Below, piece after piece: positions 8,908-13,542 of a DNA stretch of 64,000 nucleotides; the stretch's first letter is position 1, and the number at the start of each line of letters is the position of its first letter. The stretch is from Promethearchaeota archaeon. Its GTDB lineage: Archaea; Asgardarchaeota; Lokiarchaeia; Sigyniarchaeales; SOKP01. Where the stretch lies: positions 32,001-96,000 of the forward strand of contig JAHPZI010000028.1 in NCBI GenBank assembly GCA_019058295.1. The letters run 5' to 3'. The position numbers and the translations under genes are program-made. The notes under the pieces were generated by a model. It did no database searches. It saw only the letters and a list, made by a program, of their open reading frames with translations, and had not been told where the DNA came from.

Positions 8908-11097
8908 TTATTGATATGGTTTAATAACGTGAATAACATCATCAAAATCGATTCCAAGCTCTTTGACTAACTCAATTGTTGGGCAACCAAACGCATTCCA
9001 ACCACGTTTTTGATACACAGCCTCTTGAAGTTTAAAATACTGAATCTCTCTATATTTTCGCAAAATTTTCATTTTTTCTTCGGTAGATTTACCTTCGATA
9101 TCTATATCGAGCTCCTTTAATTGTTCATCATATCTTTTTTGGCGACTTTCATATTCCATTTTTGTTACTGGTCCCATTGCTCTATAAGGTATATTGGAAT
9201 CATGTTCGCTCAAACCTTTACCTTGACGAATGTTAAAAATCCTTTGTAAATTATAGACACGTTCAGACATTCGGATAAGATCATCAGGATCTGCATTGAT
9301 ACCTGTTACTGCCGTATAATAATCTGCATACCATTGAACATGTTGTGGAATTTTCGCTTGTAATAATTCCCCTGCCATTTTAATCGGCAAATCAAAATTC
9401 GATGGAGGAGGCACATCATTCCAAGGAAGTTTACAGAGCCCACATAACCCAAACCAGGTTCTCCATAAAGGAAACCAATATAATGCTTTAGCTTTATCTT
9501 CAAATGTTGGAATTGAGTGGCGTACAACATCTTCAAAAATCAACCATGCTTCATCATGTTGAGGCCCTTTGTTTGTGAAACCATAGCCTCCTTGTTGGGT
9601 GAGTGATTCCTTGGTAACATATTCAGAAAACTCAAGTCCTTTATGCTCCATTCCAATATCTTGTAAAAAATTAGGATCTCCACTATATTTCTCAGCGAAT
9701 AGTTTTTTTAATCGTTTTATTCCTTGACCAACGACCAGACCAAAACCTTCTCCTCGTGCCATTTGATGGATTAATTCAATTGCAGCTTCAGCATTTCCAA
9801 AATGCAACTCAAGTCCGCCTGTAATTTCTTTATTTATAATTCCCTCCTCATAACACTCCATAACAAAGGCAATTCCTGTTCCTACACTTATAGTATCTAA
9901 ACCATAGGTATCACAATAAAAATTAGCTTCCATTACCCATTGAGGATCCCATACACCCCAATTTGATCCACATCCAGCAATAGTTTCATATTCGGGTCCA
10001 TCAACAATTACTTTTTCTCCTTTAAACTGTCCGGTCATAACTTTATATTTTTCAACCCAATGACTACAGCTAACGCTACACCCAAAAAAGCATCCATCTG
10101 ATCCTTTTCCCGTACGTTCCCCGAAAAGATCAGCCCATACTTGGCGTTTATAAGGGATTTCTTTATCTTTAATTTCACGATGTTGACCAAATCGAAAATT
10201 TTCAGTTGGGAGTAAATCTGTAATATTCATAATATCTGGAAGGTATCCCGTTCCTACAATTCTCATTTGATTCATAGAAGGATCGTATGTTATTATTTCT
10301 TTTTTGTGTTTCCTCCCGATCTCAATTAATTTTTCTGGATCAGCAGGATTATTTTTTTTAACATCATATGGAGGAGATCGACATATTAATGCTTTAATTC
10401 TTTTGTTAGCAAATACACTCCCAATTCCTCCCCTTCCTGCTTGTTTACAAGAAGCCCATTTCCTTTTTCGTGCATACCACGAAGAATTTAGCATCCCCCA
10501 TCTTGTGTGCCTTGCGGCAGGTCCTGAACTAACAACAGAAACCATCTGCTTTTCTTTTTCCGTAGATTCTTTCGCAAATTTTTCTGTTAATTGTTGAGTA
10601 AGAAGATGTGAATAGTCTGAAAGATTGTCTGATTCTTCAACCCTTATAATTTGAACCATGTGATCTTGACCATTAATAAATATCAACACATCATTTTCGG
10701 TTTTTCCTTGAATTTCAAGGACATCAAAACCAGAACATTTTAGATAGGGTCCAAAATGCCCTCCTACATTGCTGTCTATCACAATTCCGGTCAGAGGGGA
10801 GATTGTTGTAACTATAGATTTGCCTCCTCCAGGATAATATGTACTTGCCCCTAAAGGACCTGTTGCCCAACAGATTTCATTTTCAGGGTCATCCCATTTA
10901 ACAATTCTGTCTTTCGGTAAGCTATTCCACATAAGCCAGAGATCAAAACCCCTCCCACCGATGAATTTTTCTTTCATTTCATCGGTTATAGGTTTAATTT
11001 TAATTTCGTTTGTTGTTAAATTTATGTATAAAGTTCGATTTGTATATCCCCGAACCATGTCTTGATGTTCATACTTGAGTTCTGCTAAAATCAACAC
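8908..11097 (-). CDS. aor: Aldehyde:ferredoxin oxidoreductase family (tungstopterin)
   Basis: FIGGRG, DPENEI, ISPLTG..DSNVGG, QAGRGGIG, GCFFGCSVSC, GPEYET, CDTYGLDTIS, GLCGLCKLPW. Confidence 0.93.
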   Translation of the reverse strand: MLILAELKYEHQDMVRGYTNRTLYINLTTNEIKIKPITDEMKEKFIGGRGFDLWLMWNSLPKDRIVKWDDPENEICWATGPLGASTYYPGGGKSIVTTISPLTGIVIDSNVGGHFGPYLKCSGFDVLEIQGKTENDVLIFINGQDHMVQIIRVEESDNLSDYSHLLTQQLTEKFAKESTEKEKQMVSVVSSGPAARHTRWGMLNSSWYARKRKWASCKQAGRGGIGSVFANKRIKALICRSPPYDVKKNNPADPEKLIEIGRKHKKEIITYDPSMNQMRIVGTGYLPDIMNITDLLPTENFRFGQHREIKDKEIPYKRQVWADLFGERTGKGSDGCFFGCSVSCSHWVEKYKVMTGQFKGEKVIVDGPEYETIAGCGSNWGVWDPQWVMEANFYCDTYGLDTISVGTGIAFVMECYEEGIINKEITGGLELHFGNAEAAIELIHQMARGEGFGLVVGQGIKRLKKLFAEKYSGDPNFLQDIGMEHKGLEFSEYVTKESLTQQGGYGFTNKGPQHDEAWLIFEDVVRHSIPTFEDKAKALYWFPLWRTWFGLCGLCKLPWNDVPPPSNFDLPIKMAGELLQAKIPQHVQWYADYYTAVTGINADPDDLIRMSERVYNLQRIFNIRQGKGLSEHDSNIPYRAMGPVTKMEYESRQKRYDEQLKELDIDIEGKSTEEKMKILRKYREIQYFKLQEAVYQKRGWNAFGCPTIELVKELGIDFDDVIHVIKPYQ

Positions 11098-11246
11098 ATA
11101 TCACATCGATTTTAAACTTGAATATTATATTTAGGATATTACATTGAAATTCTTTAATTAAATTAAGTTTAAGGTTTCATTATCTTTTTTTGAATCTCTT
11201 GAAAATTTACAAAAAAAATTTTTAGAGATGATTCATTTTACGTTAT

Positions 11247-12116
11247 ATGGTTGATACAGCCACTAAAGTTCGAGAAATACAGAAAAAATTTAATATCATT
11301 GGAAGATCAGAGGAACTAAAAAAAATAATATTGGCACGTGTAGTTGGAAAGAACATATTAATTGAAGGTGAAGTTGGAGTTGGTAAAACAACCTTAGCAC
11401 AGGCAGTTTCCAACTACTTTGATTCAAATTTTTATCGAATAGACTGTTCAGAAGAAATTTTGACCCATAGTTTAGTAGGTCATTGGGATCCTCCACTTGT
11501 TATTGCAAAAGGATATGAAGAGGATTCTTACGTTTATGGACCGCTTGCCTTAGCCATGTCGAAAGGGGGCTGTTTATTTATTAATGAAATTAATAGAATG
11601 CCCGAAAGCACTCAAAATGCGTTACTAACTTCATTAGACGAGAAAATTCTTGATATCCCCAAATTAAAAACCATTAAAGCAAACAATGAATTTTTTGTTG
11701 TTGCAACCTTAAATCCTTCGGCACATGTTGGAGTAACGGCATTAGGAGAAGCTTTAAAAGATAGATTCATCTGGATTAAATTAGATTATCAAAAACCAGA
11801 AGAAGAAATCGAAATTATTAAAAAGGAAGTTGATATTGATGATGATATTGATAATAAAATCATACAGATATCACAAGAAATAGTACAAGCAACGAGAGAT
11901 AACACATCTATACGTAGAGGAAGTTCAATTAGAGGTGCCATTGATTTAACAGCATTAATAACTCAATATGATAACAATACCAGCACTAAAAACTGGATTG
12001 AAGCTGCAATAATGGCGCTTTATAATAAAATTGAAATGGAAGATGGTGTAGCAAAATCGAAAAAAGAAATTATCACTGAAATCGTTTTATCTATATTAAA
12101 TGACTCGGATTTTTAG
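11247..12116 (+). CDS. MoxR/CoxD-like AAA+ ATPase (short, unshifted product)
   Basis: Walker A GEVGVGKTT, Walker B LFINEINR, TLNP, ALKDRF, SSIRGAID. Ends GAT TTT TAG. Confidence 0.92.
   Translation: MVDTATKVREIQKKFNIIGRSEELKKIILARVVGKNILIEGEVGVGKTTLAQAVSNYFDSNFYRIDCSEEILTHSLVGHWDPPLVIAKGYEEDSYVYGPLALAMSKGGCLFINEINRMPESTQNALLTSLDEKILDIPKLKTIKANNEFFVVATLNPSAHVGVTALGEALKDRFIWIKLDYQKPEEEIEIIKKEVDIDDDIDNKIIQISQEIVQATRDNTSIRRGSSIRGAIDLTALITQYDNNTSTKNWIEAAIMALYNKIEMEDGVAKSKKEIITEIVLSILNDSDF
12107..12116 (+). other. Candidate -1 programmed ribosomal frameshift site G_GAT_TTT followed by TAG
   Basis: The heptamer lies in the only overlap (12104-12116) between the AAA frame and the -1 frame that continues into the vWA ORF. 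Confidence 0.65.
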
Positions 12117-13231
12117 TAATCGATGATTTCTCAGAGGAAGAATCCAATGAGATTGAGAGAAAGCGGCTTAATGTTAGGCTTACGGAGAGCCCTCCTGATA
12201 AAGAAATCCTAAGATTAGAAATAATTCGGAGCAAAAAGAAAAAACCTGATTACTATCGCCACTTAGCAAATACATTGGATTATAAGCAAATAAAAGAAAT
12301 GACTTATTTAGCAATCCAATATAAAAATCTTGAAGCTATTATGGGTATGCTTAAGTCAAACGTTTACGCAGCGACGGATGCTTTAGACTGCGAAGATGGG
12401 GTAAAATTTTTTACCGAAAAATCTAAAGAATCAAATATGGTTATGCCGGAAATATATTTCTTTATCAGACGACCGATTTCGCCAAAATATAAAAATATTT
12501 TTAGAAGGCTTGCCCGTCAGAGTATTTTGAAAACTTCCTTGAAAATCACTAGCAGAGGTATTAAAGGAACATTGAAAAAGATTTTCCCTTATTATGAAAT
12601 TGGAATGCCTGAGTTTGATCTGGATGAGACCATTCAACATAATCCGCTAAAAATTTATGAAAAAAGCCTTTCTCATAAAGATATTTATGGAATTAAAAGG
12701 CAACAGCAAAAAAGGAATGTGGTTTTAATTCTTGATACGAGTGGCAGTATGTATGGAAAAACATTATTAAATGCCGCTCTTACAACATCTGTTCTAGCCT
12801 ATAATATGGAAAAGGAAAATTATGGTATAGTCCTTTTCAATTCAACAGCTATGACATTAAAAAGAATTAATGATAAAAAATCAATTATCTCTATTATCGA
12901 TGAAATTCTAGATTCTGAGGCTGTAGGATTTACTAACATCCAAATTGGTTTAGAGAAAGGTTTAAAACAATTAAATCAAGTTAAAGAAAATAGAAAACAT
13001 AAATTTGGTATTTTAATTACTGATGGAAATTATAATCGTGGAGAAAATCCTCTTACTATCTCAAAAAAATATCCTAAATTACATGTAATAGGTATGCCTG
13101 CAGAGAATGACGCTGATAGAGGTCTTGATACTTGTCGAGAACTTGCCAAAGCTGGAAAAGGAAAATTTTTTGCCGTAACCGATTATAAAGAAATTCCGAG
13201 AGCGCTCATAAATTTATTGTCTCAAACTTAA
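12113..13231 (+). CDS. vWA (MIDAS) domain protein, CoxE/ChlD-C-like; probably the C-terminal part of a frameshift fusion (track start TTG 12275)
   Basis: EFDLDETI; MIDAS elements LILDTSGSM, FTNI and ITDG. The frame is open back to 12104 with no ATG/GTG/TTG before 12275. Confidence 0.85.
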   Translation, partial: LVIDDFSEEESNEIERKRLNVRLTESPPDKEILRLEIIRSKKKKPDYYRHLANTLDYKQIKEMTYLAIQYKNLEAIMGMLKSNVYAATDALDCEDGVKFFTEKSKESNMVMPEIYFFIRRPISPKYKNIFRRLARQSILKTSLKITSRGIKGTLKKIFPYYEIGMPEFDLDETIQHNPLKIYEKSLSHKDIYGIKRQQQKRNVVLILDTSGSMYGKTLLNAALTTSVLAYNMEKENYGIVLFNSTAMTLKRINDKKSIISIIDEILDSEAVGFTNIQIGLEKGLKQLNQVKENRKHKFGILITDGNYNRGENPLTISKKYPKLHVIGMPAENDADRGLDTCRELAKAGKGKFFAVTDYKEIPRALINLLSQT

Positions 13232-13542
13232 TTTAATTTTAAATAAAGAAATGTCATTGAATTTGAAAAATCAAAATGATTTTAATCCTATTTTTGTTGA
13301 TATTTTATAATTACAAATAATCTATTAAAAGTAATTAGGCTATCAGAACCTAATAATTTGTAATAACTTAGATGAGTAAATTGGTAGGATAAAACAAAAA
13401 ATAAACAAATTTAATTGAAAGTTTTTAACAAATTTTTGCAATTAGAACAATATTTGAAATAATATAAATAGAATATCTAACATTTTTATTATAATTTAAA
13501 TCTTTTTTAGAAATTTAACAAAAAATTAGGTATATTGAAATT

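Follow-up and report, generated by a model that had tools for sequence, protein, structure and literature searches.

The gene considered here lies on the plus strand of a 64,000-nucleotide stretch of Promethearchaeota archaeon DNA (assembly GCA_019058295.1, contig JAHPZI010000028.1, positions 32,001 to 96,000; hereafter the window), which belongs to a 79% complete metagenome-assembled genome (MAG) of an Asgard archaeon whose close relatives are labelled Promethearchaeia or Promethearchaeota. An open reading frame (ORF) of 289 codons at 11247–12116 encodes an AAA_5/MoxR-class ATPase of 289 residues, carries the Walker A motif GEVGVGKT at about 11367–11390 and terminates with TCG GAT TTT TAG (12105–12116, protein terminus SDF), the TAG at 12114–12116 being followed directly by a second in-frame stop, TAA, at 12117–12119. 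In the −1 frame, a TGA at 12101–12103 is followed by 375 open codons (12104–13231), which include a vWA (von Willebrand factor A) domain at 12716–13198 with a complete MIDAS motif (metal ion-dependent adhesion site), its DxSxS beginning at 12734. The two frames overlap over 13 nucleotides only (12104–12116), a segment that contains the heptamer G_GAT_TTT (12107–12113), and the earliest ATG, GTG or TTG of the −1 frame is the TTG at 12275, its codon 58, with none among the first 57 codons. A ribosome slipping at the heptamer would resume at 12113 (Leu) and add 372 residues, so the predicted products are proteins of 289 and 661 (289 + 372) residues. The genome holds no second close copy of the vWA gene. 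An earlier note, made from these letters alone, had described the frames, stops, overlap, heptamer, TTG 12275 and product sizes correctly in every detail, and had proposed that a programmed −1 frameshift yields both proteins from one gene, the explanation that is weighed here against its rivals.

The first ORF matched Pfam AAA_5 with 76 bits (cutoff 22; E 2.8e-21) and AAA_3 with 67 bits (cutoff 27), and PDB sequence matches of the ATPase were MoxR (2r44, E 4e-15), CbbQ (5c3c) and NorQ (9qh4); judged by its sequence, the ATPase is of the AAA_5 type (CbbQ/NorQ/GvpN-like) and is no chelatase. Residues 205–365 of the second ORF matched Pfam VWA with 52.6 bits (cutoff 23.8; E 8.5e-14), VWA_2 and, weakly, VWA_CoxE, and the MIDAS residues D211, S213, S215, T277 and D307 were invariant in 25 homologs. 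An AlphaFold2 model of the vWA half built with these 25 homologs (mean predicted local distance difference test (pLDDT) score 89, predicted template modelling score 0.81) matched, in Foldseek, NorD from NorQ–NorD complexes (247–270 alignment columns), BatB and the MIDAS domain of Rea1. More specific identities were considered and rejected. The best-scoring NCBIfam models (GvpN, MadB, cobaltochelatase and BchD–ChlD) were all far under cutoff: GvpN reached 86.7 bits against an equivalog cutoff of 266.8, MadB 71.3 against 475, and the ChlD/BchD chelatase models TIGR02031 and TIGR02442 gave 24 bits against 499.6, and 29 and 23 bits against 779, respectively; the match to Pfam Mg_chelatase was marginal only. 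Special kinship with midasin was likewise discarded: the phmmer E value of 5e-36 to Rea1 accumulates over seven weakly matching domains, none of which exceeds 36 bits, whereas bacterial MoxR reaches 59 bits with a single domain, and a sequence search with the vWA profile did not recover the Rea1 MIDAS domain. At the Walker B position (AAA residues 108–116, about 11568–11594) the ATPase reads FINEINR, with Asn where Asp is usual (INE, not DE), a reading shared by the in-frame fused homologs P0031 and P0027 described below; the substitution at the Mg-binding residue looks family-wide, with the catalytic Glu retained.

The 54 codons between the slip site and the TTG (12113–12274), in which translation of a separate vWA gene would have no usual start codon, encode an acidic disordered linker and the first helices of a helical domain. 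In the model, about 30 poorly ordered residues, the acidic linker occupying about residues 4–30 of the open −1 frame, precede a helical domain modelled with pLDDT above 90, whose beginning near residue 31 lies well ahead of codon 58; a start at TTG 12275 would cut into this domain. Among 22 relatives of the window's family, the stretch contained no stop in the vWA frame in all 22, against 1–12 in each other frame, and variability was concentrated at third codon positions (0.35 vs 0.23 and 0.18). By these measures the stretch is clearly coding, and the arrangement is not due to chance. Automatic gene callers cut the vWA gene short at an internal codon or begin it at a TTG present by chance: one predicted protein (P0003) has 289 residues and starts at residue 87, and another (P0009) starts at a TTG at the junction.

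To survey the locus, orthologous loci were excised and both halves were located with tblastn, giving 81 loci from 24 Asgard (Promethearchaeota) families, among which L040 repeats the L039 gene. Seventy loci from 20 families had the vWA frame at −1 and overlapping the AAA stop, five were fused in frame and six were at +1. The −1 overlapping arrangement held in 20/20 family-level loci and in 15/15 order-level loci, and both the −1 offset and the slip-site core T_TTT were found in all 55 distinct close relatives from GTDB species genomes. In a phylum-wide search, 184 of 301 genomes had a vWA ortholog, in almost every case as an open frame of about 360–392 codons. The earlier note had named, as a check on its proposal, whether orthologs share the −1 offset, the slip site and the peptide encoded between the ORFs, and the outcome was positive across the phylum. 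These counts also bear on a competing account, a broken gene or an assembly homopolymer error in the T5 run, which might be suspected at a homopolymer in a 79%-complete MAG. More than 70 independent assemblies share the −1 offset, closed single-contig genomes (e.g. L027, L033 and L036) among them, T5+TAG and T4+CAA+TAA variants both preserve it, and both halves bear a signature of purifying selection. The signal is likewise present in families f2 and f4, some of whose genomes are closed. Since the offset is conserved across relatives, we exclude a pseudogene or an assembly error, an explanation that we regard as extremely improbable.

The six +1-offset loci (L068, L069 and L076 of f31, L079 of f22, and L082 and L083 of f23) form a separate observation. 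Their AAA ORF contains TTT TTT CGN, and in these lineages the +1 frame is open across the site; the Arg codon of the three f31 loci is CGG, assumed here to be rare in these AT-rich genomes. These loci could be either cases of +1 frameshifting (UUU CGG read as UUC GGG) or truly split gene pairs.

Comparison of the −1-type loci defined what is conserved at the slip site. In 69 of 70, NNT_TTT (twice AAT_TTC) stood 0–2 codons before the AAA stop (5 codons in L072). The codon before TTT varied (GAT, AAT, CAT, CTT, CCT, GGT, CGT), and the base before GAT was A or T in many relatives. The conserved element in these alignments is the tetramer U_UUU (T_TTT, 12110–12113 in the window), on which tRNA-Phe would re-pair perfectly one base back, and not the heptamer G_GAU_UUU that the earlier note had emphasized, since the preceding base and codon vary. 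Canonical heptamers (A_AAU_UUU, C_CCU_UUU, U_UUU_UUC) occurred in a minority of loci, and that of the window is not one of them. Three genomes with 52–61% GC keep GAT_TTT_TTC, although TTT accounts for 9–26% of their Phe codons and GAT for 25–45% of their Asp codons; codon bias is thus no explanation for the motif. In L077 and L078, a −1-frame TGA immediately before TTT leaves only 7 nucleotides, TTTTCAG, for the change of frame and so locates the shift at tRNA-Phe, stepping from its UUU onto the UUU that overlaps it. The sole −1-type locus lacking a T run is L041 (f5), where the AAA ORF ends GAA AAC CCT TGA and a −1-frame TTG overlaps the stop (TTGA); this may be ordinary coupled initiation or an A_AAA_C slip.

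The T run is T5 in the window and T4–T8 elsewhere, and the adjacent stop codon was the one further feature retained at nearly every locus. The window's family alternates between TTT TAR TAA, the form of the window, and TTT CAR TAA (CAA or CAG followed by TAA at the place of the window's TAG and TAA, 12114–12119), the offset being kept in both. A homopolymer of this kind raises the question of transcriptional slippage, in which an extra U inserted by RNA polymerase at the T run would join the two frames in some of the mRNAs, and these would be the templates for the fusion. The fused orthologs L038 and L080 have T7 and the fused L081 has an in-phase T6, lengths that would be expected were the frame set by the length of the run, and the efficiency of chlD frameshifting scaled with the length of its poly-A run. 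Most loci of the window's family, however, have no more than T4 (48 of 55 read TTT CAA/CAG TAA/TAG), far shorter than the runs known to support polymerase slippage, and a covarying RNA hairpin downstream of the site in other families (see below) better fits a ribosomal mechanism. We consider slippage of the polymerase very unlikely.

In-frame fusions of the two halves exist in nature. A word-indexed search for longer (fused) homologs returned none, whereas an exhaustive search of 1.84 billion representative proteins with the vWA half recovered in-frame AAA_5–vWA proteins of 563–711 residues among its relatives. The AAA half of P0031 is 51% identical to the window's AAA protein over its full length and has the terminus SNSDF; its DNA reads GAT TTT TTT CGT at the junction and continues in frame, on an Asgard-like contig that carries an EAP30 gene. 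P0027 (621 residues) is present in two independent assemblies, and the genomes of f24 encode fusions of 724–732 codons with TTT TTT CGN at the same point. The existence of these orthologs indicates that the protein occurs naturally, and functions, as a covalent fusion, an argument that Antonov et al. made likewise for chlD from its fused homologs (PMC3711429).

Downstream of the slip site, most lineages outside the window's family have a compact hairpin about 10 nucleotides after the T run, whose arms differ between lineages yet remain complementary (GGAGGA/UCCUCC, GGGAAUUC/GAAUUCCC, AGGAAUU/AAUUCCU, UCCCGAG/CUCGGGA, GGACAU/AUGUCC). Twenty-two sequences, drawn from 11 families other than the window's, were aligned with MAFFT, and covariation was counted over a 5-bp core: 83% of cells were paired vs 66% in shuffled alignments, and 28 cells had changed on both sides vs 9.3 ± 3.2 expected, a value that none of 500 shuffles reached. 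All five core pairs covaried, and slid controls scored much lower. RNAalifold detected no consensus structure in the pooled alignments, the hairpins having emerged on family-by-family inspection, and an Rfam scan of 11000–13500 found no known RNA family. Over all loci, the 45 nucleotides after the slip site folded at the median 8th percentile of windows of the same gene (58% of loci at or below the 10th percentile), and those of the window locus at the 4th. In family f2, a stem of 4–6 bp pairs the bases just after the stop with those just after a GATGA and covaries by eye (GGCU/AGCC, UGCU/AGCA, GUGC/GCAC, CUGC/GCAG, CGGC/GCCG), its 3′ arms having been misaligned by MAFFT. In the window's family the hairpin at about 10 nucleotides is absent, and a weak candidate, UCUC...GGA...UCC...GAGA (12129–12152), takes its place, with an outer helix (12129–12133/12148–12152) that can pair in 22/22 members and an inner GGA/UCC (12136–12138/12143–12145).

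Further observations concern the same region. The 16 nucleotides after the slip site (12117–12132), TAATCGATGATTTCTC, are nearly invariant in the 22 family members, whose proteins are only 69–94% identical; the choice of ATC and TTC codons within them is fixed in nearly all members, TTC being the minority Phe codon there, and apart from the second stop and the weak hairpin we can offer no explanation for this invariance. A GATGA (Asp-Asp/Glu; 12122–12126 in the window) follows the junction in most families, and its GAT is kept against codon bias in the three genomes of 52–61% GC. Many families have GA adjoining the covarying hairpin 5′ and GAUGA adjoining it 3′, the positions that the tandem G–A pairs and 3-nucleotide bulge of a kink-turn would take. 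This GA–stem–GAUGA arrangement could be a candidate binding site for L7Ae, and coding constraint could explain it equally well.

These data can be set against the possibility that the locus consists of two separate genes, the vWA gene being started independently, by termination–reinitiation or by coupled initiation directly at the junction, on a non-canonical codon such as AUC or AUA or on the UUG of UUUUUGA variants. MoxR-class ATPases are usually paired with separately encoded vWA partners, a stop codon always adjoins the junction, and the 5′ arm of the hairpin is GGAGG, resembling a Shine–Dalgarno sequence, in several families; other arms (GGGAAUUC, UCCCGAG, GGACAU) are unlike a Shine–Dalgarno sequence. 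In 57 of 69 loci no ATG, GTG or TTG lay within −12 to +6 codons of the slip site, and seven of the 12 exceptions were the TTG, overlapping the TGA stop, that arises automatically from TTT_TGA. Start-like codons show no conservation: the position of the first one ranges from codon 11 to codon 113 in the window's family, and in f16 the locus L052 lacks the TTG of its relatives yet keeps the T run. The sole nearby ATG, that of the conserved GATGA, was rejected as a vWA start, as it lies in the AAA frame and not in the vWA frame, and its ORFs are short (29, 15 and 18 codons in three relatives). Moreover, T_TTT is held against codon bias in the GC-rich genomes and would not be needed for reinitiation, the fused orthologs make the covalent fusion a functional form, and two independent genes would leave the T run, the hairpin and the fusions unexplained. 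On balance, separate initiation of the vWA gene is unlikely.

Several observations nonetheless weigh against frameshifting. Some lineages have the TTG that overlaps a TGA stop, or a Met some 22 codons downstream that is fairly well conserved, and either codon could allow independent initiation in those lineages. In f31 a conserved ATG lies about 10 nucleotides past the AAA stop, from which the two proteins evidently can work as separate chains. The slip motif U_UUU is a tetramer and no canonical heptamer, and in many lineages the preceding tRNA would re-pair poorly. The related genomes are non-independent samples. Finally, the hairpin of the window's family begins 15 nucleotides after the slip site, shows almost no covariation and is no more stable than dinucleotide shuffles of its sequence (z = 0.07). 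The TTTCTC...GAGA hairpin that the earlier note had put forward as a possible stimulator exists, in that its outer helix is paired throughout the family, and the convincing covariation was found only for a differently placed hairpin in other families.

Taken together, we regard it as quite probable, from the comparison of these sequences, that a single gene at this locus gives rise, through programmed −1 ribosomal frameshifting, to two products, a short ATPase and an ATPase–vWA fusion. Most ribosomes would terminate at TAG 12114 and release the 289-residue AAA_5/MoxR-class ATPase, and a minority would slip one base back with tRNA-Phe on UUU (from 12111–13 to 12110–12) and continue with UUA GUA AUC GAU GAU, producing a 661-residue protein composed of the AAA domain, the acidic linker, the helical domain and the vWA domain with its MIDAS motif. 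The adjacent stop codon, a downstream structure or both may slow the ribosome. We infer the ribosomal nature of the shift, the involvement of a single tRNA and the efficiency of the event. A shift of low efficiency would supply about one tethered vWA adaptor per AAA hexamer, and by analogy with CbbQ6:CbbO1, NorQ–NorD and midasin the purpose of the arrangement may be a ratio of roughly one vWA adaptor per hexamer. A more far-reaching version holds that an ancient Asgard recoding signal, consisting of U_UUU, the adjacent stop and a hairpin that in many families would be kink-turn-like and bindable by L7Ae, has been kept across most sampled families, and that its efficiency sets about one vWA subunit per hexamer, as a split-gene equivalent of midasin with its six AAA modules and one MIDAS domain. 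We regard this version as unlikely; if true, the signal would be the first cellular −1 frameshift of archaea to be conserved widely, and a protein might stimulate it in trans.

If the frameshift is confirmed, the locus would offer a deeply conserved natural model for frame shifting by archaeal ribosomes, in which slip site, spacer and hairpin vary naturally and lineages with in-frame or possibly split genes provide controls. It would also be a second, independent case of an AAA+ ring and its vWA adaptor being obtained from one gene by recoding, suggesting a general way to fix adaptors at sub-stoichiometric levels, and the annotation of the gene would need correcting in many Asgard genomes. Literature searches turned up no report of frameshifting in Asgard archaea or for MoxR-type genes. 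In a review of 2021, fucA1 is the only cellular archaeal −1 frameshift demonstrated experimentally, the chelatase case being 'presumably' frameshifted (PMC8211752).

The closest precedent is the frameshifting chlD gene (medium subunit of Mg/Co-chelatase), in which a −1 frameshift gives short AAA+ and long AAA+–vWA subunits (PMC3711429, Antonov et al. 2013; PMC9227772, Kuznetsov et al. 2022), so that the precedent invoked in the earlier note is real. As in chlD, one gene would yield a short AAA+ protein by termination and, after a −1 shift, a long AAA+–linker–vWA protein, annotation usually divides the loci into two neighbouring genes, other species have homologs fused in frame, and the family is found in archaea as well as bacteria. 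Unlike chlD, the gene described here belongs to a different protein family, has U_UUU by a stop codon instead of a poly-A run of 7–11 nucleotides, and resides in an Asgard host instead of Methanococcales or Proteobacteria, and a chelatase context was not found at this gene. The cellular gene fucA1 (alpha-L-fucosidase) of the archaeon Sulfolobus solfataricus is divided between one ORF in the zero frame and one in the −1 frame, with a slippery site and a putative stem-loop (PMC8211752), and in both systems full-length relatives differ by one base in a homopolymer; the site of fucA1 is A_AAA_AAT, is present in few strains and gives a short product with no known role, whereas here the signal is phylum-wide and both products are plausibly functional.

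With respect to the proteins, the pair resembles CbbQ–CbbO, NorQ–NorD and other MoxR-class pairs in combining an AAA_5-type ATPase with a vWA domain that has an intact MIDAS. Within this class, each AAA hexamer is bound by a single vWA adaptor; the stoichiometry CbbQ6:CbbO1 has been measured and was put forward by the authors as a general theme (PMC4660213). The partners in CbbQ–CbbO and NorQ–NorD are separate genes with their own starts, whereas here the vWA domain would be reached by recoding or, in some lineages, is fused in frame. Midasin (Rea1), to which the window's protein has no special relationship, tethers one MIDAS/vWA domain to six AAA_5 modules by a long acidic linker, the same domain logic as a hexamer of the short ATPase with one fused vWA.

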